From the IMG/VR virus record IMGVR_UViG_2667527633_000005: a stretch of 19,664 bases of DNA. One strand, 5' to 3'. Under the pieces are notes generated by a model. It was not told the DNA's origin and ran no database searches. It worked only from the letters and a program-made list of their open reading frames with translations. A program made the translations under genes and the position numbers. Shown piece by piece: positions 1 to 11,174 of this stretch (its first letter is position 1; each line of letters begins with the position of its first letter). Origin of the DNA: a virus (Duplodnaviria > Heunggongvirae > Uroviricota > Caudoviricetes).

Positions 1-177
1 CTACCNNNNNNNNNNTACTTTTGCGCCTCCCAGCCGGACCGGCGCTGCGGCGTAATACGCGGCAATTTCACCAATCCAGCCGGTCAGCCTTTCCCGCTGC
101 TCCTGACTGTTCGCGCCCAGAATAAAATCCATCGCTGACTGCGTATCCAGCTCACTCTCAATGGTGGCGGCATACAT
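1..177 (-). CDS. hypothetical protein, 5' portion only (runs off window start; N-run 6..15 inside)
   Basis: Minus-strand frame opening with ATG at 177..175 (MYAATIESELDTQSAMDFILGANSQEQRERLTGWIGEIAAYYAAAPVRLGG...). Absent from the ORF track because there is no stop in the window. No family recognised. Confidence 0.3.
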   Translation of the reverse strand: MYAATIESELDTQSAMDFILGANSQEQRERLTGWIGEIAAYYAAAPVRLGGAKVXXXX

Positions 178-257
178 CGCCTTTATGAAAAGACAGGAAA
201 AAATAAAATTTAAAAACAGTACATTACGAATGCTCAGACCTATCGTTTAAAGGAGTC

Positions 258-279
258 GCAATACACACTGCAATACACG
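258..279. repeat. left copy of 21-bp direct repeat gcaatacacaCtgcaatacac (two tandem GCAATACAC half-sites); candidate att/arm-type site at left island end
   Basis: Matches 10950..10970 (gcaatacacaTtgcaatacac) at 20 of 21 positions; a further GCAATACACA copy lies at 10920..10929 beside the integrase start. Confidence 0.45.
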
Positions 280-312
280 ATTATTTATAAGATGAGCGGC
301 ATCCGTCATAAA

Positions 313-551
313 GCTGGTGGATGCTTTTTCTATGCATATATGCACAGTTTTAGTGGGCGTTAATGTCGATATAGGGATCCCCATATCGAGATTGGATACC
401 TGGCTTTTTTCCGGTTAACCTTTAATCAGGCTGGTGGGCTTTACCTGTTTTGTATGAGTGGTCATCATGACCATGTCATAACAAAAACCCCATATTCGTG
501 GTTTTTCTGTGTCGGGCTATTCTGTCGTTGCTGTGCTGATTTGGCTGGTGG
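313..551 (+). other. cluster of three Chi octamers 5'-GCTGGTGG-3' in one orientation (313..320, 430..437, 544..551)
   Basis: Exact octamers read directly from the sequence within 240 bp of non-coding DNA; palindromes GTCGATATAGGGATCCCCATATCGA (367..392) and GGTCATCATGACC (461..473) lie between them. Confidence 0.75.
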
Positions 552-617
552 GCTGAATCATCATTACGGCGATGCAGCTATGTAGACGTTCCGGCCTCCT
601 CAAATTGAGGATTGTGG

Positions 618-778
618 AAGAATCAATGGGTTAGTCTTACTTTCCCGACATCCCCCAATGGGGGTTTTCGAAACAATCAATAGCTTAGGCTTACTTCCCC
701 GATTTCCTGCATTGCAGGTTTTCGAAATAATCAATGGGTTAGGCCATCGTGCAATTTTGCACTTTGCCAGCCAGCGCA
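618..778 (+). repeat. tandem ~55-bp repeat array (about 2.5 units), each unit with ATCAATGGGTTAG..CTTACTTCCCGA plus a short GC-rich hairpin followed by TTTTCGAAA
   Basis: Units begin near 622, 678 and 731. Hairpins: CCCCCaatGGGGG (about 652..668), CCTGCattGCAGG (706..718), GTGCAAttTTGCAC (759..772). A second repeat family GCCAGCGCAAT..CGCGTTATC occurs near 768..795 and 955..984. Confidence 0.6.
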
Positions 779-992
779 ATGTCGCGTTATCAGTCCTCAG
801 ATGTGAGGGATGTAGCCAGCTTTTCCCCCAGTGGGGGATATCCAGCACCGACGGCTTAACTGTGCGTGCCAGCACAAGGTAGCCTTGAACTACTTACTGC
901 ATCCCATCTTACAGGCCGTGCCTTCCTGCTTAACTTTTTGCAATGCAACAAGTCAGCCAGCGCAATTTTGCGTTATCGGGAATATCAGCAAG

Positions 993-1274
993 TTACCGCC
1001 GCAATCGTTCCGGCTTCTTCCACTGGTAAGTATTTTTCGCGCTCTCCCTCCGTTGTTGAGAACGGCGACGATATGCCAGCAACTCAAGGACTCTTGTTCG
1101 TATGTTGCGCATATCCACGCCGTTAAGCTCAATACCGTCACGGCGCATCACCTCAGCCACTACACGCACATAATTATCTGCGGTCACGCTGTCCGGCTGC
1201 GTGGCCTGTTCGTCATGCTGCTTGCTGATTCCACAAGCACGGCGGATTAATCGCAGTATTTCGGATTCAGTCAT
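993..1274 (-). CDS. hypothetical small protein (93 aa) with arginine-rich C-terminus
   Basis: ORF with ATG at 1274, directly downstream of the terS-like gene on the same strand; C-terminus RRRSQQRRESAK..KKPERLRR suggests nucleic-acid binding. Weak RBS, no family recognised. Confidence 0.4.
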   Translation of the reverse strand: MTESEILRLIRRACGISKQHDEQATQPDSVTADNYVRVVAEVMRRDGIELNGVDMRNIRTRVLELLAYRRRSQQRRESAKNTYQWKKPERLRR

Positions 1275-1356
1275 AGCGTACTACGTTACTTATCTTTATT
1301 CGGCTGCAACTTATCCGGTACGTTTCCGGCAGTTTCCATCAGATAATCGGACAGCA

Positions 1357-1827
1357 TCAGCGGTATGTTTTCGTCAAGTTTTGCGCATGCGTTACAGGCT
1401 CTGATAACTTCTTTTTCAGTCCATCCAGCATAGACGGCTTCATGTCGGGAAACTTCCTTGTCATGGCAAGCGGCAGGCTGTCCATGATTGAAGAAATCTG
1501 ACTCGCCAATTTTGAAAGCACGTATATACAAAACGCTGTATCAATAACGTCGCCGCGTTCGCGCTCGTTTTTAAGCTCCTGCGCCTCTGCCTGTGCTGTC
1601 AGCAATCTGATCCTGACTCGTAGGAGTTCATCATCATCAATCTCGCCTTTGTCGTCTGTAATCTGGTTAATTGCATTGCTAACCCGATTGTCTATTACGC
1701 TGGCAACATCATAAAACGCCTCGCGGCCTTTACGTTCAACGGGAGTCACTCCCCACTTGTCGAACGCTGTCGCACTTACACGGCAGCTTTGCGCCATGTT
1801 TTTTTTGTTCATCAGGTGCGATTTCAT
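1357..1827 (-). CDS. terminase small subunit, phage lambda Nu1-like
   Basis: LLTAQAEAQELKNERERGDVIDTAFCIYVLSKLASQISSIMDSLPLAMTRKFPDM aligns with lambda Nu1 (..RLTRAQADAQELKNARDSAEVVETAFCTFVLSRIAGEIASILDGLPLSVQRRFPEL) as I recall it. Start placed at ATG 1827 (GGGGA RBS 5 nt upstream); the track ORF begins at GTG 1839. Lies about 135 bp downstream of cosN, as in lambda. Confidence 0.85.
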   Translation of the reverse strand: MKSHLMNKKNMAQSCRVSATAFDKWGVTPVERKGREAFYDVASVIDNRVSNAINQITDDKGEIDDDELLRVRIRLLTAQAEAQELKNERERGDVIDTAFCIYVLSKLASQISSIMDSLPLAMTRKFPDMKPSMLDGLKKKLSEPVTHAQNLTKTYR

Positions 1828-1939
1828 CAATATCCCCACTTAAGTAATGTTTCAGGTTGGTGTATTGGCTTTATCTTTTCCTTTTTATTCATAGAGATAG
1901 AGCGAACAACAAAACCACCACCAGCACCCGAAAAAGGCT

Positions 1940-1990
1940 CATAAATAGCGAAAACCCGCGAGGTCGCCGCCCCGTAGCCTACCGGATCGC
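1940..1990 (-). other. lambda-type cohesive-end site (cosN core = reverse complement of 1961..1972, GGGCGGCGACCT, plus conserved flank)
   Basis: Minus strand reads ..ACG GGGCGGCGACCT CGCGGGTTTTCGCTATTTATGAg.., matching the lambda left-end/cosN sequence from memory; positioned immediately upstream of the Nu1-like gene. Confidence 0.8.
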
Positions 1991-2028
1991 CGGAAAGGAC
2001 CCGCCAGCCAGAACGGGCCCTAATTTCA

Positions 2029-2412
2029 TCAACCAATCAACTTATAGCGACCATCCCGTGCATTGCGACGTACACGCTCAATCTTGAGGCATAGCGCCGC
2101 ATCTGGCTTTTTTGGGACAGGTACGCGGCAATATTCAGAAGATCGAGGAATATTGTTTATCCAGTCGATCACTTCACTTAAATACCAGGCCTTACGCCCT
2201 TCCGTAACCTGCACACGCTCCGGGAACTCTCCACTAGCCTCAAGGTTTAGCAATGTGCGACGGCTAAGGGTAGTAAGTTCCATCACCTGATTCATATCAA
2301 CAAGGCGTTCACTTAAACGCATTTTGTCAGCAATAGCCTTTAATTCCTCTACTGCTGGATCCGGATACATCATTTCGGCAATTGGCTTAAGGTCATTGTA
2401 ATGATTCTGCAT
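2029..2412 (-). CDS. AlpA/excisionase-like HTH regulator (127 aa)
   Basis: Central segment MELTTLSRRTLLNLEASGEFPERVQVTEGRKAWYLSEVIDWI resembles the AlpA/Xis-type winged HTH; GGGGGA RBS 4 nt before ATG 2412; sits between the decoration gene and cos. Confidence 0.55.
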   Translation of the reverse strand: MQNHYNDLKPIAEMMYPDPAVEELKAIADKMRLSERLVDMNQVMELTTLSRRTLLNLEASGEFPERVQVTEGRKAWYLSEVIDWINNIPRSSEYCRVPVPKKPDAALCLKIERVRRNARDGRYKLIG

Positions 2413-2423
2413 TGTATCCCCCT

Positions 2424-2765
2424 TTACACACGAGCCAGCGGCTGAACAGAAATACCTGAGCCAACAAACGCGGCAACCTTTGCCGACAGTTCTTTTACAG
2501 ACTCAGGCCAGTTCAGAGCATCAACATTTAAAACACCTGTCTTATAAACCTGTGCCTGTGTTTTTTTCGCTGTGTCGATTTGTACAGCGGAAACATAAAC
2601 CGCTTTACCTACGCTCGAACCATCCCATACCACCAGTGCACCTGTTGCATCTTCCTGCATCAGTGGCGTAAATGCAGGAATTACCCCTTTATTAGCTGAA
2701 AATATCCCCAGCGTAGTCACCAGTGCTTCAGTGCCAGCCATGAGTTCAGTGTAATGAGTAGCCAT
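2424..2765 (-). CDS. head decoration protein, phage lambda gpD-like
   Basis: TPLMQEDATGALVVWDG..VYKTGVLNVDALNWPE..AAFVGSGISVQ parallels lambda gpD (TPLMLDTSSRKLVAWDG..FYKSGTFRYEDVLWPEA..TAFAGTAISIV, from memory); GGGGGAG RBS overlaps the stop of the upstream capsid gene. Confidence 0.8.
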   Translation of the reverse strand: MATHYTELMAGTEALVTTLGIFSANKGVIPAFTPLMQEDATGALVVWDGSSVGKAVYVSAVQIDTAKKTQAQVYKTGVLNVDALNWPESVKELSAKVAAFVGSGISVQPLARV

Positions 2766-2774
2766 TGCTCCCCC

Positions 2775-3815
2775 TTAGCCAATGCGAACGGTAACAAAAC
2801 GATTGATGCGGGCCGGTATTGGCTGTGGTGCTGAATGTGTCTGCACATATTCAATAGCCGGATCACCAGGCACAATATAGTTTTTCGGTGCAAGTTCGGC
2901 TTTAGTCAGCCCCATTCGGATTAGCTCCGGATCCTGAATACCGCCATAGGCGACAATCCCCTGAAGAGCCGTATTGCCAAGCACCATCAAATCAGGATCA
3001 AGGAAATGTTTTTCTGTTCCGTCCTCGTCGGTATAACGCCCGCTGTAAACAACAATCGCAACATCGCCCATATACCCTTTAAAACTCACCGAATCACCAA
3101 GGTCTTTAAGGGCCGTTTCCAGTTCGGAATTAGAACCACGACGGGTATCCAAAGCCTCTTTTATCGCTCTGAATGAACGGTATTTCTTCCATACATTACC
3201 ACCCATAATGATGATATTAGTGACGCCCTCACTAAATTCTGCGTAGCTCTCAATATCATCATTTGGATCAAAAGTTTCTTTATCCTTACCTGACCACTCA
3301 GTACCGCCAGACTGAGTGATGATATTTTGTGGTTTTATATTCCAGTCCAGCTCATAACGTTCAATACCATCGCCCTCAATGATATTTTTCCCCGTTGTGA
3401 TTGCCTGAACAGCAAGCCATTCAATACGTGCACGAATAGCTTTAGCCTGATTTACAATCGCCTGTTTAACTTTAATATTACGTGCCCCAAAAGCATTGTA
3501 TTGCTCAGGTGATACACCAGCAGGGCGCACAGCTAACTTATTTGGATCAATGCTGCTTTTCGGCTTCATATAGCCTGGACGAATTGTTTTTGATTCGTAC
3601 CCTTCGTCACGTGAAACTTTACTACCCACCATAGGAGAACAAAACGCTGCAATTGGGATATTTGGATCGTCGATTGTATCAAGAATAATATCGCGCGATT
3701 CAAACATTACCGAGCGAGTAAAAAACAAACTGGTAAACAACGCATTTAGTTGTTTTTGTACATCTACAGCATTAACCACCTGTACAAGCTGAGTAGGCGA
3801 ATATAAATCAACCAT
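2775..3815 (-). CDS. major capsid protein, phage lambda gpE-like
   Basis: Long collinear match to lambda gpE, e.g. NIITQSGGTEWSGKDKETFDPNDDIESYA..YRSFRAIKEALDTRRGSNSELETALKDLG..YMGDVAIVVYSG..MVLGNT. Start set at ATG 3815 (AAGAGG 6 nt upstream; aligns with the gpE N-terminus); the track ORF extends to 4028, but a stable hairpin at 3990..4020 argues against that extension. Confidence 0.85.
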   Translation of the reverse strand: MVDLYSPTQLVQVVNAVDVQKQLNALFTSLFFTRSVMFESRDIILDTIDDPNIPIAAFCSPMVGSKVSRDEGYESKTIRPGYMKPKSSIDPNKLAVRPAGVSPEQYNAFGARNIKVKQAIVNQAKAIRARIEWLAVQAITTGKNIIEGDGIERYELDWNIKPQNIITQSGGTEWSGKDKETFDPNDDIESYAEFSEGVTNIIIMGGNVWKKYRSFRAIKEALDTRRGSNSELETALKDLGDSVSFKGYMGDVAIVVYSGRYTDEDGTEKHFLDPDLMVLGNTALQGIVAYGGIQDPELIRMGLTKAELAPKNYIVPGDPAIEYVQTHSAPQPIPARINRFVTVRIG

Positions 3816-3989
3816 ACGCATCCTCTTTGCATTCATTAAAAATAATTGTGGATATATGCTACCACCGATATTTGTCATGCGAACACATGCAACCGAGTGC
3901 AATGTTGTATAAAGTTTTGGGGTGACAACTTCAGTGCGGACAATTAGTGTTAATATCTTCACTCCCTTTGGTCGGGATTTATGTAGCAT

Positions 3990-4020
3990 GCCGGAAAATT
4001 TATTTTTTCCGGCCTTTTTT
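3990..4020 (+). terminator. intrinsic-terminator-like hairpin (GCCGGAAAA-tttatt-TTTTCCGGC followed by a T-run), plus-strand orientation
   Basis: Perfect 9-bp stem 3990..3998/4005..4013 with T6 at 4015..4020, in the gap between the SSB-like stop (4032) and the capsid gene; on the minus strand it is a hairpin without a U-tract. Confidence 0.4.
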
Positions 4021-4031
4021 ATTGGCAATAT

Positions 4032-4481
4032 TTAAAACGGGATATCATCTCCCCATTGCTCATTATCTCCCACTGGTGGCTGGCTTCCTTGCTGATCTGC
4101 CTGTTGTTTTGCTCTGTTCAGTTCGTCAGTAGCCTGCCCCTGTTGGCCTTTTTTGCCGCCCGGTCGCGCCGTTCGCGCACTGATTACGCTGTCTGCGATA
4201 ACCTGCCAGCCCCGCCGCGTTTCGCCGTTCTGGCCTGTCCACTGGCTTACCTGCATGTTACCCGCCACGCTCACCAGTTCGCCTTTGTGGTGTTTTGCCA
4301 GTGCGTCGGCCTGTCTGCCAAACGCCAGGACGGATAACCACATCGTCGCCGTTCCGTCATCTGCCTGGCTGCACGGCAGGGGAACCGCCATACTCGCCAT
4401 CGCCATTTGTGTCCCTTTGCTGGTGGTCTTTAACTGCGGGTCAGCCACCAGCCGCCCGTAAGCCGCTATCTGTGCTGTCAT
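4032..4481 (-). CDS. single-stranded DNA-binding protein-like (C-terminal acidic DDIPF tail)
   Basis: Ends ..NEQWGDDIPF, the hallmark SSB C-terminal tail, preceded by a Gly/Gln-rich linker and an N-terminal domain compatible with an OB fold; overlaps the upstream ORF by 4 bp. Confidence 0.65.
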   Translation of the reverse strand: MTAQIAAYGRLVADPQLKTTSKGTQMAMASMAVPLPCSQADDGTATMWLSVLAFGRQADALAKHHKGELVSVAGNMQVSQWTGQNGETRRGWQVIADSVISARTARPGGKKGQQGQATDELNRAKQQADQQGSQPPVGDNEQWGDDIPF

Positions 4482-4792
4482 GCTGTCTGCTCTCCGGTTT
4501 TAACATTGATGGTTGTCACCTGTTCCGCTTCGGCAATCTCCCGTTCTGTCAGCGTGGCAAAGTTTGCCGCTGCTGTGGTCATGAATGCGCTTATCAGGTC
4601 GGGATGTTCCTTCGCGTATCCTGCCCGTGTGTGGTGGTCTATCGCTTTGATTGCCACCTTTAAGGAAAGCTCTGTCATGTCTAACGCTTTATATTTTGCC
4701 TGTGTTCTGTCTCTGCGAATTTTGGTCATTTGTCGCCCCTGATTCATGTTTTCGGCTGGCATGTTTATTAAGTGATTTTTATGTATGCGCAT
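4478..4792 (-). CDS. hypothetical protein (104 aa; start uncertain, several in-frame ATGs)
   Basis: ORF immediately downstream of the iteron origin and translationally coupled to the SSB-like gene; no family recognised. Confidence 0.45.
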   Translation of the reverse strand: MRIHKNHLINMPAENMNQGRQMTKIRRDRTQAKYKALDMTELSLKVAIKAIDHHTRAGYAKEHPDLISAFMTTAAANFATLTEREIAEAEQVTTINVKTGEQTA

Positions 4793-4843
4793 TTATTTTC
4801 ACCCCCCCCTCGTTTAAAAAGTTTTTAGTTGTGCCTCCCCCCC

Positions 4844-5061
4844 TCTACCCATCTACCCGAATGCTCATCATGTCAGTAATGGCGCGGCTTTCAGCGGGTA
4901 GATAGCTTTTTGACTCCTCTACCTGCCGTCTACCCTGCTACCTGAAACTGATAAAATCAGGTAGAAGAGGTAGAGAGCTTTTATTAGCCTTCTACCTAGC
5001 CCTATACCCACTTATCATGTTGAATAATATGCGTTTATTTTGTTCAGGTAGATGGGGTAGA
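4844..5061. repeat. iteron array (TCTACC forward, GGTAGA inverted; at least 10 copies) with adjacent AT-rich DNA: putative replication origin of the island
   Basis: TCTACC at 4844, 4852, 4918, 4929, 4991; GGTAGA at 4897, 4960, 4969, 5047, 5056 (pairs spaced 8-11 bp); AT-rich stretches at 5018..5045 and 5066..5090; immediately 3' of the primase/helicase gene. Confidence 0.6.
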
Positions 5062-5077
5062 TGGCTTTTACAAAAAA

Positions 5078-6832
5078 TTATAAAAACGCGTCGCAATCGT
5101 CTGTTGTAATTGCGTTGGTCTGCGTTACTCCCTTAACTTTTCGCGTAATATATTCATGCCCGTAAACTTTCGCCGCTGGCTTCATGGCCTTGCTGAACTC
5201 AGCCACGTTTAGCGGTTTGCTCCTGCCCGCGTATGCCATAAACGCCAGATAGACGCGGTAAAGGCTGTTCCTGGTCGTGTACTTCACTGAATCACCACCG
5301 CCACCCATCATCAGGCCGCGCGCTTCCTCCAGAAAATTCAGGAACTGGCAAAACTCAATAACCGGATCCGTCTGTTGCTTTATTGCCAGTGCTTCATCAC
5401 CGTCACGCTGTTCCAGTAGTAAAGCCCGTGCCTTCTCAGGGTCGGTAAAGTTCGCCAGCAATCGGCGGATAATAACGGGGATTTCAGCCGCAATCTTTTC
5501 CGGTAGCTCCCTGTCTTTTTCGGCCTCACTGACGATATTGTCGAAACGGAAAATCACGCGACGACGTGCCACACCTCCGGCCCGTTCGGTGAATATCATC
5601 GGGTTGTTGTTGGTCGCCAGCACCACCGCCCTGATTACCGCCGTGAAACGCTTTTCATATTTCGGGTTAATTTCCACGGGGTCGCCGCCTGTGATTTTCT
5701 TGATGCCCGTTCCTTCGCCTGTATATTTCGGCTGGTCAGCCAGGACGATAAGACGACTCCCGACAACCTGCGCACGTCCACCAGCATCATCAAGCGATGT
5801 CATTTCAGCGCTTACCGTGTTCTGTTTCCCTGCCAGAAGGCTGGCTATGTGTGTGAATGTACTTTTACCGCTCCCGCCGTCTCCGGTGGCCTCAATAAAC
5901 ATCTGCCAGTCGTACCGGTTCGCCATAATCATGTACAGCGCGGCACATATACGCATCATCTTGCGCGGGTCTTTTCCGGCTGCGTGCTCAAGCCATTTAT
6001 GAAAGTTTGGCGCGTTATCGCGGATGTTCTCCCCTGGTGCTGGTGGCGTGTACTCAATGCCGTTGTGCGTGGTGATCCAGTTCTCCGGCGTGTGCGGGGA
6101 AAATTCCCCCGTTTTCAGGTCAAGCGCACCATTGGCGAACGGCAGCAAATCGCCAGACGGCTCGCCCATTGGTTCGGCAATAACTTTTAACGCTTCCACG
6201 GCGTTATTGATTACGCGCTTGCTGAAAGTGGCCCTGTGCTCTGAATAGATCGCCACCATTTCGCGGCTAAGTTCCATTGTGCTGACCGGACACCATACCC
6301 CGCCGCGCCATACGTGAACGATTTCACTTTCAGGATGTACGCAAACGCCATCAAAGCGATCGGCAAGCAACTGCGCGCGCTCACTGTCCGCCATCTGCGA
6401 AAGTTGCGCCTTTTGCTTTACCGGAAGCTCAATGACCAGACCATCAGAAAGATTCTGGCGTTCACGGGCCAGATATTCGCGCCAGTTCTGCACCTCCTGG
6501 CCGTGCATACCCTCAGGATAAAAATTTGCATCCTGTACGCCTGCTGCCGCCAGCTTCTGACCAATCGCCTTTATCATTACAGGCGCAAGATATCCGGCCC
6601 TGTATATGCGTGCTGATTTTCGGCCTTCCGGCACAATTTGCAGATTATCCAGTTCGGATAGCTGCTGCTCCCCAAGCCACACAGGAGGCTCATTATCTCC
6701 GGCCATACGCGCATCATGTTCCTGCCATTGTTTCGCGTGTGCCCAGGCATCACTACCCGCAAAAATAATGACTTCTGTTCCTTTGTGTTTTATGCCGCGT
6801 GACTGCTGTTTTACGTTCGGTGCCAGTTTCAT
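5078..6832 (-). CDS. P4-family primase/helicase (Pri-Rep-like replication initiator)
   Basis: 584-aa ORF with Walker A IEATGDGGSGKSTFTHIASLLAGK and a C-terminal region typical of phage/plasmid P4-type primase (D5_N/SF3 helicase-like); the position (small ORFs, pri, then iteron ori) matches satellite replication modules. Confidence 0.9.
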   Translation of the reverse strand: MKLAPNVKQQSRGIKHKGTEVIIFAGSDAWAHAKQWQEHDARMAGDNEPPVWLGEQQLSELDNLQIVPEGRKSARIYRAGYLAPVMIKAIGQKLAAAGVQDANFYPEGMHGQEVQNWREYLARERQNLSDGLVIELPVKQKAQLSQMADSERAQLLADRFDGVCVHPESEIVHVWRGGVWCPVSTMELSREMVAIYSEHRATFSKRVINNAVEALKVIAEPMGEPSGDLLPFANGALDLKTGEFSPHTPENWITTHNGIEYTPPAPGENIRDNAPNFHKWLEHAAGKDPRKMMRICAALYMIMANRYDWQMFIEATGDGGSGKSTFTHIASLLAGKQNTVSAEMTSLDDAGGRAQVVGSRLIVLADQPKYTGEGTGIKKITGGDPVEINPKYEKRFTAVIRAVVLATNNNPMIFTERAGGVARRRVIFRFDNIVSEAEKDRELPEKIAAEIPVIIRRLLANFTDPEKARALLLEQRDGDEALAIKQQTDPVIEFCQFLNFLEEARGLMMGGGGDSVKYTTRNSLYRVYLAFMAYAGRSKPLNVAEFSKAMKPAAKVYGHEYITRKVKGVTQTNAITTDDCDAFL

Positions 6833-7128
6833 TTTTTACCTCTGAATCCGTTAATCATGGTTTTCATTTTCTGGATATTTCCCCACGCTTTTTCCCTGCT
6901 GATGGGCTTACTGCGGGGTGCGGCATATACCAGGGGAAAATCACGCCGGAACTGATAAACAGGCATCACGCAGTCATAGCTATACCCCTCACGGCGGTAA
7001 GTGATGCGCCGTTCTGCCACGCCTTTAATCGTTACCGTGCCGCCGTATTTATCGCGGTAAATATCGCCGTTCATAAATTCAGGTCGAGCGGGGCCGCTGG
7101 CAATAAAGCCAGAATTTTTCATTTCCAT
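6829..7128 (-). CDS. hypothetical protein (99 aa)
   Basis: ORF overlapping the primase start by 4 bp (coupled); no family recognised. Confidence 0.5.
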   Translation of the reverse strand: MEMKNSGFIASGPARPEFMNGDIYRDKYGGTVTIKGVAERRITYRREGYSYDCVMPVYQFRRDFPLVYAAPRSKPISREKAWGNIQKMKTMINGFRGKK

Positions 7129-7145
7129 ATTATTTATTCCTCGAC

Positions 7146-7367
7146 TTAACTCGACTTATTTGATAGCAGGGCACTATTTATTGCGTCATTGAGTTTTTCT
7201 GCTGATTCATCAATAAGTGACAACAGGCCATAAGCAATATTTGCATCTTCATTGTCATTTATGCAATCAAGCCACATATTTAATATTGCTTTTGCTGAAT
7301 TATTTAAAGTTAATGAACTTTCTGCACATGCTAACAATTTAAAAAAGACTTCCCGTTCTGTATTCAT
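7146..7367 (-). CDS. hypothetical protein (73 aa), encoded in a visibly AT-rich segment
   Basis: ORF in the same operon string; local base composition is much more AT-rich than the flanking genes. Confidence 0.4.
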   Translation of the reverse strand: MNTEREVFFKLLACAESSLTLNNSAKAILNMWLDCINDNEDANIAYGLLSLIDESAEKLNDAINSALLSNKSS

Positions 7368-7559
7368 TTAATCCCCCACCAGCTTACTTTCTTCCTCAAT
7401 CAAAAAACTAGCGACACTTCCCGAAAGACGCGCCAGTAGGCTCGCCAGTGCGGATATATCAGCATCTGTAATTTTGTTCGGGTATACCTCAAGAAGGCGG
7501 CAAATAATTTCTGTCTGGTGCGCACGTTCAGCGGCTTCGTGTAATGTAATTTCCTGCAT
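7368..7559 (-). CDS. hypothetical protein (63 aa)
   Basis: ORF abutting its neighbours with no gap (7367/7368; shares nt 7559 with the upstream ORF). Confidence 0.4.
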   Translation of the reverse strand: MQEITLHEAAERAHQTEIICRLLEVYPNKITDADISALASLLARLSGSVASFLIEEESKLVGD

Positions 7560-7744
7560 TAATGCACCTCTTTTAATTCATACACTGCTGAAATAATGAC
7601 TTGTGATAAGCCATATTCTGATGATTCGCTTCTCACCGCAGCAATAGCCGTCTGAACATTAACAGCCTTCACATTCTGAGCGATACCAATTGTGTGGCCT
7701 ATTGGGTTAACAGCTCGGGCAAATACACGGAAGGTTTTAAGCAT
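7559..7744 (-). CDS. hypothetical protein (61 aa), first gene of the leftward operon
   Basis: ATG at 7744 preceded by GGGAG (6-nt spacer); lies immediately downstream of the divergent control region. Confidence 0.45.
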   Translation of the reverse strand: MLKTFRVFARAVNPIGHTIGIAQNVKAVNVQTAIAAVRSESSEYGLSQVIISAVYELKEVH

Positions 7745-8025
7745 GACTCACTCCCTGGCGGATTTTTGCAGCGAATACAGCAACACAACCGGACGGGCAA
7801 CGGCTACGCGCTTCGCGTTCCGTCCAGGCGGTTACGTGGATGATTTGAGATTCTCCGGCACTCAGTGCCAGAAAACGCCACACAAAGGCCGTTTGTGTGT
7901 GTACAAGGTGTGGTATATGATTTACAGCAACCATAACGGCTCCTAGTTTACGTTGTTGGTTAGACGCCCCGTATGTGTTCCCAGCACTGCGGGGCGTTGC
8001 TCTTTGTATTTCAACAATCCTTTCG

Positions 8026-8103
8026 GTGTGTTTCATGTTATGAGCGCATGAAACACACGTCAAGGCTTTTTGTATTTCTTTTTTTGTGTATACTGAAACA
8101 CAC
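8026..8103. promoter_or_regulatory. operator-like sites in the divergent control region: GTGTGTTTCATG-N9-CATGAAACACAC (8026..8058) plus a third TGAAACACAC (8094..8103) overlapping a TATACT -10-like hexamer (8089..8094)
   Basis: Perfect 12-bp inverted repeat read directly; located 20-100 bp upstream of the RHH gene start (8125, AGGAG RBS) and within the 380-bp gap separating the two divergent transcription units. Confidence 0.5.
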
Positions 8104-8124
8104 CGATGATTAGGAGTTTCAGAA

Positions 8125-8430
8125 ATGGCAACGGCTAACAAAAACGCAAAATCACAACTGACAACTGTCAGAGTCCCACTAGATGTTATGCAAGGGATGG
8201 AATCCGTTAAGCTGGACGGTGAAAGCAATGCCGGATTTATCGTAACCGCCATGCGCGGAGAAATAGCCCGCCGCCAAGCAGAAGGCAGCGGAGAAAATCC
8301 CCTTGTGTCGTCACTGGATGCCCTGGCTAAGGTCGAACAAATCGGCATCAAAGCAGCCGAGGAGATCGGGCAACTCGTCACCGTCGCGCGTGAAGAACTC
8401 CAGCGACGCAAGGTCAAAGAGCATGAATAG
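8125..8430 (+). CDS. ribbon-helix-helix (CopG/Arc-like) DNA-binding protein; candidate island repressor
   Basis: N-terminal LTTVRVPLDVMQGMESVKLDGESNAGFIVTAMRGEI has the strand-helix-helix pattern of RHH regulators; strong AGGAG RBS; transcribed opposite to the main island operon. Confidence 0.55.
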   Translation: MATANKNAKSQLTTVRVPLDVMQGMESVKLDGESNAGFIVTAMRGEIARRQAEGSGENPLVSSLDALAKVEQIGIKAAEEIGQLVTVAREELQRRKVKEHE

Positions 8431-8487
8431 CCAATATCAGCGCCATAGTTTGAGGAACGCAGGCGCATTGCTTTACAGGACAGCACC

Positions 8488-8667
8488 ATGAGCGACACAG
8501 AATCAACCAAAACACCATCACCAACTCGTAAGAGACGACGCAAAAATATAGCGCATGAACATGAATCAGAAAGATTCGCACCTTGTTCGTTTGCTCTTGA
8601 GAAATTCCTTAAAGAGCACAGGAAAAAGCTCTCGTTGCAAACCTTGGAACGAACCAAATCTGACTGA
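8488..8667 (+). CDS. hypothetical small basic protein (59 aa)
   Basis: ATG 8488 to TGA 8665..8667 (MSDTESTKTPSPTRKRRRKNIAHEHESERF...), below the ORF-track length cut-off; follows the RHH gene and precedes a strong terminator. Confidence 0.4.
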   Translation: MSDTESTKTPSPTRKRRRKNIAHEHESERFAPCSFALEKFLKEHRKKLSLQTLERTKSD

Positions 8668-8733
8668 TCACATTGCCCACCAGCCGCAAATGTGGCATTG
8701 TTGGTGATGCTTTTGTTTTCCCTTGTTCCCACT

Positions 8734-8765
8734 GGCGACCCTTTTGCGGTCGCCTTTGTTTTGTC
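8734..8765 (+). terminator. rho-independent terminator (GGCGACC-cttttgc-GGTCGCC followed by TTTGTTTTGTC)
   Basis: 7-bp GC-rich stem with T-rich tail, read directly; placed between the convergent plus-strand pair and the Bro-N gene. Confidence 0.6.
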
Positions 8766-9342
8766 ACTGAATGCGGTTACCAAAGTAAAACTCAGGCTGA
8801 TATTCACGTATCAGCGTTTTTTCTTCTTCCTCCAGCTCACGCTTTTTGCGCTTACATGCCTGTAGCTCCCTCCCCTTCTCGCTGGCACTTATTTGATATT
8901 GCTCTTTACGGCGGGAAAAATCCTGTAATGCACCCCACGGGATACCATAAGTCCCCGTTTTTCTGATACCTGGTATCACATTTCTGAATACCCAGTTACT
9001 GAAACGATGAGCAAATGTGCCAGGCGTCGTTGCTTTGCGGCTGCGGGCTATTAGTTTGTAGAAACCTGACTCAGAGATAATTCTCATATTCTGATTTCCT
9101 CCTGGGGTGTAAGTTAAATTTACTCCCTTTTCATCATCATCAAGCATCTGCAACGCCGTACGCGAATTGGTTAGTTCCAGCGCAGCACAAACATCTTTTG
9201 CAACAAACCACGGATCGCCGTTCAGATACACCACACGAACGTTCACACTATCAAAGCGCAGAACGACGAGATCACGAATATCGCAGAATTTTTTCACTGG
9301 ACGAGCGTACCCCTTGCCCGTCACGGCAATATTTTTATTCAT
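8764..9342 (-). CDS. Bro-N domain protein (phage antirepressor-like) with coiled-coil C-terminus
   Basis: N-terminal region (..NGDPWFVAKDVCAALELTNSRTALQMLDDDEK..) is typical of Bro-N/AntA DNA-binding domains; C-terminus is charged and heptad-like (RELQACKRKKRELEEEEKTLIREY). Confidence 0.75.
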   Translation of the reverse strand: MNKNIAVTGKGYARPVKKFCDIRDLVVLRFDSVNVRVVYLNGDPWFVAKDVCAALELTNSRTALQMLDDDEKGVNLTYTPGGNQNMRIISESGFYKLIARSRKATTPGTFAHRFSNWVFRNVIPGIRKTGTYGIPWGALQDFSRRKEQYQISASEKGRELQACKRKKRELEEEEKTLIREYQPEFYFGNRIQ

Positions 9343-9362
9343 CGCGTTTTTACCTTATAGAC

Positions 9363-9385
9363 AAAAAACCCCTCGTGATGAGGGG
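9363..9385 (-). terminator. rho-independent terminator on minus strand (CCCCTC-gtgat-GAGGGG; U-tract from the A6 run 9363..9368)
   Basis: Hairpin 9369..9385 directly downstream of the alpA stop (9399), followed on the minus strand by six U. Confidence 0.5.
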
Positions 9386-9398
9386 CATTATTTACTGG

Positions 9399-9656
9399 TT
9401 ATTGCTGTTTTGTTTTTCCAGGTTTCCATCCAGGATGCCACTCACCACGGATCCATGCCTGAACCTCTGAAAGTCGATACCCTGCAGCACGTTCACCGAT
9501 CTTGATACGTCGCGGGAATTTACCTGCCTGCTCCATTTTCCAGCGTGTTGAGTTTGCCAGCGTGGTAAGTGCTATGCACTCTTTTTCACGAATGAACCGA
9601 TCAATGTCCTTCATTGTGCGCAAATCGTTTTCATCAACAAGAGAATAAATTGCCAT
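9399..9656 (-). CDS. alpA: AlpA-family transcriptional regulator / excisionase-like protein
   Basis: 85 aa; ..CIALTTLANSTRWKMEQAGKFPRRIKIGERAAGYRLSEVQAWI is typical of AlpA (prophage CP4-57 regulator family); start is 2 bp after the integrase stop. Confidence 0.85.
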   Translation of the reverse strand: MAIYSLVDENDLRTMKDIDRFIREKECIALTTLANSTRWKMEQAGKFPRRIKIGERAAGYRLSEVQAWIRGEWHPGWKPGKTKQQ

Positions 9657-9657
9657 A

Positions 9658-10899
9658 TCACACCACCTCTTTATTAAGCTCGATAACGTTGTTGTTAAAT
9701 CCTGCTATCGTATTAAGGTAATTAACCCACATATTAAGCACCTCAAGTTTTTTCTTTATATGCCTGCTTTTATTGTAAACACCAGCAACCCCTTTCACTT
9801 TATGACCTAAAAGAAGTTCGACAATATAAGGATCCGCCCCCATATCATTAAGCGTAGTGGAAAATGTGCGCCTGAAATCATGTATGCACCACAAGCCATT
9901 AGTATCATGACCAAGACGCCTGCATATTCTGTTTGCAGCCCCTGTTATTGTCGCCCTTTGCAAAGCACAACCGACAACATAACCGCGATTTTTTGTTTCT
10001 GCGTAAAGATTAACGATCCATTGTTTTATTCCGTCAGGAACAGGCCTTACTATAGCCTCCTTGTTTTTGCTGTGCTCTTTTGGGACTGTCCATACCCAGT
10101 TTTTTAAATCCCATTCGTCCCAGGTGGATAGCCTCGCCTCCTGCTGTCGGCAACCAAACACCAGGCAGATAACCATTATTCTTCGGTTATATATTGATGA
10201 CAGAGTTAGCAAATTATTACCGTAAGCATAAGACCATACATCAGCGGTTTCATTGATATTAAGAACGCGATCCCTTATACCGGATGAGCGCCCGACATAA
10301 CTTACGTTAATATCTCCAAAGGGATCGCACGCGATGTATTGCCTGACGCGACAAAAACGCAACGCCTGTTTGATATCAAGAAAAATTGCACCAGACATAA
10401 CAGGCGCATTTTTTTTGATCCTGTCAAAGACGGTAAGCCATGTGTGTAATTTGCACTGTTCTATAGCCATATCACCGATATAGGGGAAGATATGCTTTTC
10501 AAATCGTTTTATTAAATATTCATGCTCTTTTCTGGCTGTTGTGGCGTGATTGTCGTACCAGTAAAACAGCGCATCCCTTACGGTCACTGGTTGCATAGTT
10601 TTTTCGGCAGCAAGTTTTATTTGCCTGCGGGGGTCCAGATTTTCAGCCAGCCATTCACGGCACTGATCACGCATGCGCCTGGCCGTTGCAAGAGACATGT
10701 CAGGATAGCGACCAAGTGTAAGCCATACCGGAGGGGATTCCCTGCCACCAAGACGATAGTAAAAAACAAAGCTGATCCCCCCAACCATGCTTACACGCAC
10801 AGACAACCCGCGCCCATCCGCTATTGTTTTTTGTTTGTCCTGCCGTTTTCCGACAAGACTCTTTAACAGTTTGTCACTGAGTTTGTTTTCAATAGCCAT
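9658..10899 (-). CDS. int: tyrosine site-specific integrase, P4-type
   Basis: 413 aa; N-terminal arm-binding-like region (LSDKLLKSLVGKRQDKQKTIADGRGLSVRV..FYYRLGG); C-terminal catalytic motifs HDFRRT..LLGH..GVY; GAGGG RBS 7 nt before ATG 10899. Confidence 0.95.
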   Translation of the reverse strand: MAIENKLSDKLLKSLVGKRQDKQKTIADGRGLSVRVSMVGGISFVFYYRLGGRESPPVWLTLGRYPDMSLATARRMRDQCREWLAENLDPRRQIKLAAEKTMQPVTVRDALFYWYDNHATTARKEHEYLIKRFEKHIFPYIGDMAIEQCKLHTWLTVFDRIKKNAPVMSGAIFLDIKQALRFCRVRQYIACDPFGDINVSYVGRSSGIRDRVLNINETADVWSYAYGNNLLTLSSIYNRRIMVICLVFGCRQQEARLSTWDEWDLKNWVWTVPKEHSKNKEAIVRPVPDGIKQWIVNLYAETKNRGYVVGCALQRATITGAANRICRRLGHDTNGLWCIHDFRRTFSTTLNDMGADPYIVELLLGHKVKGVAGVYNKSRHIKKKLEVLNMWVNYLNTIAGFNNNVIELNKEVV

Positions 10900-10919
10900 T
10901 AAAAGCCCTCAAGAGATTT

Positions 10920-10970
10920 GCAATACACACCCATCCCGATCGCCAATTTGCAATACACATTGCAATACAC
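10920..10970. repeat. right copies of the GCAATACACA repeat (10920..10929; 21-mer gcaatacacaTtgcaatacac at 10950..10970); candidate attR/arm-type or AlpA/Int operator sites
   Basis: Direct repeat of 258..278 (20/21 identical); located in the integrase promoter region. Confidence 0.45.
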
Positions 10971-11174
10971 AAAACCGCGAAAAACTGGAAGGGTGATGAA
11001 CGGTCATCAAAAGCATGGAAAACGACATTCCAGACGCAGCAAGGGTTTCAGTGGAGTTGGCGAACGATGCGGGCAACTACGGTGAGATGATAGACATAAA
11101 TCGCCTTCACAATGGCGCTCTGCAGCTGCGTGTTCTGCAGCGTGTCGAGCATCTTCATCTGCTNNNNNNNNNNT

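Follow-up and report, generated by a model that had tools for sequence, protein, structure and literature searches.

A candidate ribbon-helix-helix repressor with covarying putative operators in the probable immunity region of an Escherichia coli phage satellite

The DNA analysed here (the window) is a stretch of 19,664 nucleotides, IMG/VR virus record IMGVR_UViG_2667527633_000005, in which positions 16-11163 make up an island that is 99-100% identical to islands in many Escherichia coli genomes and has the layout of a Gram-negative phage-inducible chromosomal island (PICI). At 7737-8807, between the integrase side of the island and its replication genes, lies a compact control region. Its plus strand carries a gene for a small protein with a predicted ribbon-helix-helix (RHH) fold, preceded by a set of short repeats and followed by a second small open reading frame (ORF) and a terminator, and its minus strand carries an Icd-like gene together with a long open frame that runs through all of these elements. 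Judging from comparative analysis, the RHH gene and the repeats probably form a hitherto unrecognized off-switch of this common E. coli phage satellite. Among complete E. coli genomes, 1863 of 5426 contain sequence that resembles the module. The comparisons described below draw on 21 loci from seven genera, 12 of which came from a genome-wide scan for relatives and the rest from exact-protein look-ups and E. coli hits, and these loci are partly related to one another.

The RHH gene (8125-8430, plus strand) encodes a 101-amino-acid product of the YlcI/YnfO family, the candidate repressor. It had already been proposed as an RHH-protein gene in a preliminary description of the window made from the letters alone, and it is a genuine gene, preceded by a Shine-Dalgarno sequence (AGGAG, 8112-8116, with an identity of 0.97 among class-A loci) and matching NCBIfam YlcI_YnfO_N with an E value of 1.6e-17. 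The score against the family model NF041551 is 63.3 bits over residues 9-50, with a cutoff of 30, which places the protein within the YlcI/YnfO family. In addition, phrog_6522 matches it across its full length, and phrog_949 is also a match. Pfam returned no match to the protein at E ≤ 0.01, and no curated RHH sequence model (Pfam Arc, RHH_1 and the like) was reached above its threshold; PSK_trans_fac is found below threshold in 15 of 20 members, and the allele from O157 islands scores 14.3 bits against Pfam Arc (E 0.038; cutoff 20.4).

Structural prediction is consistent with an RHH assignment. The AlphaFold2 (AF2) model, with a pLDDT of 80, has an extended N-terminus, helices at residues 19-28 and 35-55, and a single long helix at 59-100; the N-terminal strand and the two helices that follow it superpose on solved RHH domains, so that the protein can be divided into an RHH domain (residues ~9-55) and a C-terminal part formed by the long helix. 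A Foldseek search against the PDB gave nothing significant, with Arc and MatP appearing at E > 6 only. We assign an RHH fold to the 8125-8430 product with moderate confidence. A helix-hairpin-helix in residues 45-86, suggested by a weak match to Hef/XPF in a PDB profile search (E 0.005), was not adopted, as AF2 gives one long helix there; short alleles of the RHH protein lack this segment. Homologues occur across the Enterobacterales and are well conserved over their last two-thirds, and residues ~11-18 fall into discrete variants. A tblastn search of 50,697 phage records with the RHH protein found no match.

The repeats that precede the RHH gene are arranged with considerable regularity. Exact copies of TGAAACACAC lie at 8026-8035 (minus strand), 8049-8058 (plus) and 8094-8103 (plus), the first two forming the inverted repeat GTGTGTTTCATG-N9-CATGAAACACAC at 8026-8058; when up to one mismatch is allowed, the window contains five copies against 1.48 expected, three of them inside 80 bp. 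This inverted repeat, the third copy and the TATACT that accompanies it (8089-8094) were all noted in the preliminary description, which missed a fourth, degenerate half-site at 8071-8079 and a leftward sigma-70-like promoter. With these added, the region contains four 9-bp half-sites at positions -98, -76, -54 and -31 relative to the RHH ATG, alternating in orientation with a period of ~22-23 bp. The pair of half-sites farther from the gene, TGTGTTTCA (8027-8035) and TGAAACACA (8049-8057), constitutes a putative operator O1 (8027-8057), and the pair nearer the gene, the degenerate TGTATTTCT (8071-8079) and TGAAACACA (8094-8102), constitutes O2 (8071-8102). There is a possible fifth half-site, TGTATTTCA (8005-8013), ~22 bp to the left of O1, which is weak and absent in some classes.

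Each operator flanks the -10 element of a promoter. A promoter scan identified the leftward, sigma-70-like P_left (8035-8063, minus strand), with a -35 element TTGACG (8063-8058), a 17-bp spacer, a -10 element TAACAT (8040-8035) and a predicted transcription start near 8028; because the scan puts the -10 at 8040-8035, it is bracketed by O1. The -35 of P_left, which reads GTCAAG on the plus strand, is kept in nearly all loci. The RHH gene's own promoter, P_right, has the -10 element TATACT (8089-8094, plus strand) adjoining the third repeat and flanked by O2; in Xenorhabdus and Photorhabdus it is TATAAT. Among class-A loci (E. coli, Xenorhabdus, Photorhabdus and Serratia), half-site identity is 0.92-0.99 (0.99 and 0.92 for the two halves of O1), compared with 0.71 for the O1 spacer, and the positions of O2 (-54 and -31) are kept in several specificity classes. 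The repeats are very probably the operators of the RHH protein.

Further evidence on this point is the covariation between the repeats and the protein. Over the 21 loci, the repeat sequence tracks the sequence of the N-terminal strand, with the positions and promoter elements remaining fixed, and nine classes can be distinguished. Strand QLTTVRVP is paired with half-site TGTGTTTCA, QSLTARIP with TGTCTTACA, KQISIRIP with TGTGATTCA, QMKNIRFP with GTATGTACA, QQLNARFP or QQINARFP with TGGTATTCA or TGGGATTCA, respectively, and QLKNIRIP with TGTATTTAA. Strands QTVAARVP and QALKARVP, which belong to a short, 59-amino-acid form of the protein without the long helix, are accompanied by the compact palindromes GTGTTAAACAC and GTGTGGCCCAC, respectively. 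Finally, an unrelated, Arc-like protein of 57 amino acids in O157:H7 islands is associated with GGTAATTACC palindromes.

Two pairs of islands share other parts and differ in this cassette. Locus L023 and the prototype island EcCICFT073 have an identical AlpA-like protein (WP_000953274.1) and an identical integrase (WP_000085269.1) and differ in the RHH protein and the repeats, which argues against AlpA as the factor that binds them. The window and the island of O157:H7 strain JEONG-1266 (L025) agree over the first two-thirds of the Icd-like protein and in a nearby hairpin, and again differ in the RHH protein and the repeats: in the latter island, the slot is occupied by the Arc-like 57-amino-acid gene (L025 2829-3002), which is unannotated, and its GGTAATTACC palindromes. 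In O157:H7 islands, the Prokaryotic Genome Annotation Pipeline (PGAP) places a minus-strand "Icd-like, incomplete" pseudogene over the slot and omits the Arc-like gene. In EcCICFT073 (L028 7243-7653; NC_004431 1380242-1380652), the same slot holds a short, 59-amino-acid RHH allele and a homologue of the downstream ORF, together with its own GTGTGGCCCAC repeats. Such covariation is the pattern that would be expected of specificity swaps between repressors and their operators, and we take it as strong, though indirect, evidence that the RHH protein binds the repeats, represses P_left and regulates its own synthesis.

The 380 bp to the left of the RHH gene are not the noncoding gap for which they were first taken. 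They contain most of an Icd-like (P4 Kil-like) gene (7737-7934, minus strand), which is the first gene after P_left and is traversed, like the rest of the interval, by a long minus-strand frame; the only part left without a conventional gene, and noncoding on the plus strand, is the 190 bp of 7935-8124. Hence, the divergent switch proposed in the preliminary description stands in that the RHH gene faces a leftward operon, but not as a pair of units separated by a simple noncoding gap. The Icd-like gene is identified by NCBIfam phage_ICD_like (1.2e-17) and is annotated by PGAP in an identical island. Its start codon lies at 7934-7932, with a Shine-Dalgarno sequence (AGGAG) at 7944-7940, and it overlaps the next ORF (7559-7744) by 8 nt. 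Among the 50,697 phage records, tblastn with the Icd-like protein yielded one match, to a record that is probably itself a satellite.

The long minus-strand frame, which is in frame with the Icd-like gene and resembles the eta ORF of satellite P4, comprises 356 codons (7737-8807). It traverses the leader, both promoters and both operators, and lies antisense to the RHH gene, the downstream ORF and the terminator. Over the 185 nt that precede the RHH ATG, it is free of stop codons in 15 of 20 loci, whereas the other two minus-strand frames contain on average 5.45 and 4.75 stops and are open in none of the 20. It is also open through the swapped Arc-like cassette of the O157 islands, and in most loci it begins at or near the stop codon of the upstream co-oriented gene. 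In EcCICFT073, the frame reaches 434 codons, starting 38 nt past alpA with a plausible Bro-like N-terminus. The translation of the frame in the window is rich in Cys, Ser, Arg and Leu, and its family matches come solely from the Icd-like end.

Ratios of nonsynonymous to synonymous substitution (dN/dS) are unable to separate the overlapping frames, since their third codon positions coincide, and the synonymy of third-position changes was therefore compared instead. In the RHH gene, the share of these changes that are synonymous is 93% for the plus frame and 78% for the minus frame (1721 pairwise differences); in the downstream ORF, 16 are synonymous only in the plus frame and 5 only in the opposite frame; and in the Icd-like gene, which served as a control, the count is 26:0 for the minus frame. 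On this basis, we conclude that the RHH gene and the ORF that follows it encode selected proteins and that the minus-strand frame appears to be selected mainly to stay open.

The leader of the Icd-like gene also contains a conserved RNA structure. Both hairpins listed in the preliminary description are present, although one of them (7879-7899) falls in coding sequence, inside the Icd-like ORF, and the other, a conserved RNA structure, spans 7963-7998 rather than 7961-7996. The latter is a plus-strand, terminator-like element (7963-8012) with a stem of 7963-7971 paired to 7990-7998, an inner stem and a T-rich tail. Of the 15 loci compared, all give a better fold for the plus strand than for the minus strand; 96% of cells are paired on the plus strand versus 83% on the minus strand, and G-U pairs number 26 and 0, respectively. 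Double changes occur in 10 of 19 pairs, and the observed score was reached by none of 500 shuffles. The complement of the Icd-like start codon is closely preceded by a conserved -10-like motif, TGgTATGAT (TGGTATAAT in L024), at window positions 7916-7921. These elements could delimit a cis-antisense RNA of ~85 nt (7927-8012, plus strand), with its 5′ end only inferred, covering the Icd-like start codon and Shine-Dalgarno sequence. An 87-nt stretch corresponding to this antisense RNA has a predicted folding energy of -33.6 kcal/mol (z = -3.8) and includes a small second hairpin with an anti-Shine-Dalgarno sequence in its loop. The chances that such an RNA exists, with the 7963-7998 hairpin possibly forming its end, seem to us about even.

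The hairpin within the Icd-like ORF (7879-7899, minus strand) is terminator-like, with the tail GCGTTTTCTG, and is found in the E. coli subgroup (the window, L016, L018 and L025), being not clear in other genera. Situated 35 nt into the ORF, it could halt transcription before the replication genes if translation of the Icd-like gene were blocked. At the other end of the module, the RHH gene and the ORF downstream of it are followed by an intrinsic terminator (8734-8764, plus strand), as had been proposed, with a stem at 8734-8754 that shows compensatory changes in L016, L018 and L022 and a T-tail that extends to ~8764. It is one-directional, the minus strand being without a T-run. Between the RHH stop codon and the start of the downstream ORF, a GC hairpin (GCGCC...GGCGC) followed by ATTGCTTT occupies 8440-8466; its stem is longer in L016, L018, L023 and L025, and by terminating transcription in part it could govern how much of one product is made relative to the other.

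An RNA of the P4 CI type was considered for the window island and rejected on the basis of Rfam searches. Neither C4, isrK nor any other relevant family was found in the window at the gathering score or in 7500-8900 at E ≤ 10, where the only hit was a chance match to snoR86; in P4, used as a control, C4 scores 74.9 bits and isrK 60.8 bits. Likewise, 13 related loci gave no C4 or isrK, with isrN, tRNA and int-alpA RNA found only elsewhere in them. The int-alpA RNA occurs in a Photorhabdus island (L003 7326-7394) and a Xenorhabdus island (L004 4504-4572), and not in the window.

The ORF downstream of the RHH gene, ORF59 (8488-8667, plus strand; phrog_21027, 5e-15), encodes a basic protein of 59 amino acids with 15 Lys and Arg versus 9 Asp and Glu residues and an arginine-rich patch, TRKRRRK. 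As first described, it is open and conserved; its ATG is retained and indels within it are in frame. The beginning of the gene (8488-8530) encodes TRKRRRKN, which calls to mind the arginine-rich motifs with which phage N proteins bind RNA. All 29 homologue clusters are from Escherichia, and no ORF59 follows the RHH gene in Xenorhabdus, Photorhabdus, Enterobacter, Serratia, Erwinia or Phytobacter. It is unchanged beside three unrelated or truncated RHH proteins and is thus independent of the RHH allele. ORF59 belongs to no known toxin or defence family, having no match in Pfam, NCBIfam or PADLOC, and a PADLOC search with seven local proteins gave no defence-system match. It is probably a coding, Escherichia-only accessory gene.

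Taken as a whole, these features are best explained, with somewhat better than even probability in our estimation, by a PICI immunity region that is the counterpart of P4 eta/kil and in which an RHH protein repressor cassette stands in place of the CI RNA. From the genes, sites, covariation, open frame and RNA structure obtained by sequence analysis, we infer the DNA binding, repression, read-through, need for translation and antisense RNA that figure in this account. The 101-amino-acid YlcI/YnfO-family protein would be the RHH repressor, assembling probably through its long C-terminal helix and occupying the four 9-bp half-sites, which are spaced about two helical turns apart. Occupancy of O1 would block the internal leftward promoter that serves the Icd-like division inhibitor, the small ORFs, DUF4222 and the primase. 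Occupancy of O2, which has one weakened half-site and surrounds the repressor's own -10, would result in negative autoregulation. In the resting island, the replication genes would thereby be silent.

Induction could then proceed without destruction of the repressor. Transcription activated by AlpA (or, in the embedded state, helper late transcription) would enter from the int/alpA side, pass the one-directional terminator, run antisense through the convergent repressor gene and interfere with it, and read into the replication genes. The long minus-strand frame would be kept open in order that this transcript be translatable throughout, with translation shielding it from premature termination, as in P4 eta. 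The plus-strand hairpin near the Icd-like start, if it is the 3′ end of a small antisense RNA, may contribute a second lock on translation of the Icd-like gene. In EcCICFT073, AlpA switches on its own promoter, and a helper phage induces alpA, and overexpression of AlpA without a helper leads to excision and uncontrolled replication that depends on pri and int (PMC6092414). As EcCICFT073 carries the RHH-ORF57 module and is induced by AlpA alone, inactivation of the repressor by a helper protein is not required. A broader proposal is that Gram-negative PICIs possess a layered switch, as yet undescribed, in which interchangeable RHH cassettes (at least nine classes over 21 loci) define immunity groups and act together with the antisense RNA, the cassettes being antisense to an eta-like frame that is maintained solely for its translatability and both locks being overridden, with the repressor still active, by AlpA-driven or helper-late read-through; this we put forward tentatively, regarding it as rather more doubtful than even.

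A number of observations weigh against the account given above. P_right has no recognizable -35 element. A repressor gene and its operator are adjacent and hence would be exchanged together whatever factor binds the sites, and the pairwise differences counted in the third-position tests are not independent. In the window, the long frame is out of frame with bro, and its early start codons are only GTG (8807) and TTG (8783), both of them within the last part of bro; L007 and L011 have a broken frame, and in L002, L003 and L020 the frame ends just before the Icd-like ATG. With regard to the RNA, the T-tract of the 7963-7998 hairpin is imperfect, and the -10-like motif of the candidate antisense RNA overlaps conserved Icd-like codons.

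Other explanations differ from this one in what the repressor controls and how it is relieved. According to one of them, the RHH protein and the antisense RNA constitute a local safety catch that only silences the toxic Icd-like gene, with replication driven from the alpA promoter only. Such an arrangement would fit the position of the Icd-like gene as the first after P_left, the restriction of the candidate antisense RNA to the Icd-like start region and the requirement of AlpA for induction (PMC6092414). However, the ORFs from the Icd-like gene to the primase overlap or abut as in a single operon, the counterpart promoter of P4, PLE, drives replication genes (PMC10111431), and the diversity of specificity classes is more reminiscent of immunity types than of a housekeeping lock, which together make this explanation unlikely. 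The preliminary description favored a different possibility, namely that the RHH protein is a master repressor of the Stl type, to be inactivated by a helper-phage protein. The first part of that suggestion holds insofar as the gene faces the leftward operon and the repeats, by their covariation over 21 loci, are very probably its operators; the gene also has the place that stl has in SaPIs (Staphylococcus aureus pathogenicity islands), with the int side on one flank and the replication operon on the other, and the many specificity classes might conceivably correspond to different helpers. That the inducer of alpA supplied by the helper was still to be identified (PMC6092414) is a further point in its favor. 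Nevertheless, the idea of a helper protein that inactivates the repressor finds no support, as the module-bearing EcCICFT073 excises and replicates upon AlpA overexpression without any helper (PMC6092414). Moreover, what varies among classes is the DNA-contacting strand and the operator, with most other residues conserved, which points to DNA specificity, and the conserved open frame and one-directional terminator suit read-through from upstream. Induction of the Stl type is, in our view, distinctly improbable.

Two further explanations concern the identity of the genes themselves. If the module were a type II toxin-antitoxin system, the RHH protein would be an autoregulating antitoxin and the basic 59-amino-acid protein its toxin. 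The known association of a conserved toxin with its cognate antitoxin is not seen here: ORF59 is confined to Escherichia and missing beside the RHH gene in six other genera, it is constant next to three unrelated or truncated RHH proteins, and it lacks any Pfam, NCBIfam or PADLOC match. In addition, O1 would control the divergent operon and not the RHH promoter alone. A toxin-antitoxin pair is accordingly a very improbable reading, and the toxin or co-repressor role initially contemplated for ORF59 is unlikely on the same grounds. It could also be argued that only the eta-like minus-strand ORF is real, the plus-strand ORFs being accidental shadows of it and the repeats binding AlpA, Bro-N or a host protein. 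The coincidence of third codon positions in the plus and minus frames is indeed the phase in which shadow ORFs arise, and in O157 islands PGAP annotates the minus-strand pseudogene and no RHH gene. This interpretation is hard to reconcile with the preferential silence of third-position changes in the plus frames (93% versus 78%; 16 versus 5), with a minus-strand translation that is rich in Cys, Ser, Arg and Leu and belongs to no family outside its Icd-like end, or with an RHH ORF that has a conserved Shine-Dalgarno sequence, a conserved -10, a fold resembling RHH and relatives in both NCBIfam and PHROGs. Given that the repeats also differ between islands with the same AlpA and integrase, we attach very little credence to it. 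The preferred explanation thus remains an immunity region of the P4 type that employs an RHH repressor.

The surroundings of the module are those of a PICI. The window has the components of the Gram-negative PICI plan, with int, alpA, Bro-N, DUF4222 and a D5-type primase recognized by Pfam and all five co-oriented on the minus strand, and thus combines an integrase, AlpA and a primase-type replicase within an island in the ~10-15 kb range. The tyrosine integrase lies at 9658-10899 and is followed in the direction of the module by alpA (9399-9656; Phage_AlpA, 5.4e-14), the product of which is the satellite activator (PMC6092414). The Bro-N gene (8764-9342; Bro-N, 4.9e-20; phrog_2593 anti-repressor, 3.8e-85), which is anti-repressor-like and co-oriented with alpA and int, stands upstream of the long frame, and beyond the module are DUF4222 (6829-7128) and the D5-type primase (5078-6832; D5_N/DUF5906/Pox_D5). 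EcCICFT073 has the same layout. Gram-negative PICIs have been divided into Integration, Bro, Replication and Late zones (PMC10111431); the gene order of the window agrees with this plan, and the switch region belongs to the Bro zone. Helper-phage induction and packaging are known for relatives of the window island (PMC6092414, PMC10111431).

An identical island in NZ_CP028192 (L001) interrupts a prophage portal gene, parts of which remain at L001 1030-1803 and 12649-13530, an insertion that fits the "helper-embedded PICI" configuration (PMC10111431). Immediately upstream of the start of int (10899), at window positions 10917-10971, are three direct copies of TTGCAATACACA, which may be arm-type sites for the integrase or sites for AlpA. 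The segment to the right of int (10900-11163) is presumably a portal fragment, as judged from its position in the identical island. Ten N at 11164-11173 mark the joining of two contigs, and the right-hand contig (11174-19664) is foreign to the island, containing a blc-like lipocalin gene, a 2-thiouracil desulfurase-like gene, IS1 InsA and a lambdoid lysis cassette.

If the module is the repressor of these islands, it would explain the silence of the satellite and possibly mutual exclusion between satellites, and it would constitute a natural set of orthogonal repressor-operator pairs, the question being directly testable in an established system. The frame that stays open across two promoters and over two genes on the opposite strand would be an unusually clear case in which translatability, and not protein sequence, is under selection. 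The annotation of the module is inconsistent across genomes, as the O157:H7 islands illustrate. Literature searches on YlcI/YnfO and on PICIs with RHH, CopG, Arc or Mnt yielded no functional description of the module; later PICI work has concentrated on AlpA, the activator, and on immunity through RNA (PMC10111431).

Comparison with known systems places the region among several regulatory designs. The N-terminal domain of the RHH protein is shared with YlcI (DLP12) and YnfO (Qin) of E. coli K-12; these, however, are short uncharacterized proteins of lambdoid prophages, for which the literature searched gives no role, operator or satellite context. The SaPI Stl repressor and the Rpr repressor of Gram-positive PICIs are similar to the RHH gene in lying divergently between the integrase side and the replication module and in their presumed silencing function. 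They differ in being helix-turn-helix proteins that are lifted by helper anti-repressors, in contrast to an island in which the predicted fold is RHH and AlpA alone induces the prototype.

The region corresponds most closely in its layout to P4 eta/kil, of which it appears to be the positional and, in part, the sequence-level counterpart, being a probable variant of the P4-type immunity region with an RHH protein as its repressor. In P4, a constitutive promoter within eta is kept in check by CI RNA, and Kil is a nested short form of the eta product, the full length of which is translated only from an upstream late promoter; such translation prevents termination (PMC10111431). The order of int, alpA or vis, a long ORF with an in-frame, nested Icd-like (Kil) end, small ORFs and primase is common to both, as is a promoter inside the long ORF, and the frame in the window is likewise kept open over its control region. 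The P4 eta ORF (NC_001609 8168-8812) overlaps the end of vis, and the long ORFs of the islands also begin where the gene on the vis/alpA side ends, or close by. The phage_ICD_like domain is found at the C-terminus of P4 eta (1.4e-20), of the long ORFs of EcCICFT073 (3e-18) and O157 (8.9e-17), and of that in the window. BLASTP gave no alignment between the window Icd-like protein and the annotated P4 "cI" ORF, so that their kinship rests on this NCBIfam domain. The Rfam families C4 (CI RNA) and isrK (seqA) are located inside P4 eta; by contrast, no CI RNA or seqA target was detected on the same strand within the long ORF of the window, and the corresponding slot in the island holds a protein repressor gene, operators and a terminator on the opposite strand.

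In terms of function, the nearest parallel may be found in a bacteriophage. The immI region of P22 encodes two RHH repressors, Mnt and Arc, and contains the divergent promoters Pmnt and Pant together with the sar antisense RNA. There, as in the window, a small RHH repressor gene is divergent from the operon to be silenced, operators lie over back-to-back promoters, and a known or candidate antisense RNA covers the ribosome-binding site of the first gene. The long C-terminal helix predicted for the window RHH protein could act like the tetramerization helix of Mnt, and one allele of the cassette is itself Arc-like (Pfam Arc E 0.038). On the other hand, the window RHH protein falls outside the Arc/Mnt Pfam family by sequence, its half-sites are ~22-23 bp apart instead of about one turn, the operon it is thought to control consists of satellite replication genes, and its gene is antisense within a long open frame. 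By analogy, then, the closest functional parallel to the island module appears to be the Mnt/Pant switch of P22, set within what is probably an immunity region of the P4 type.

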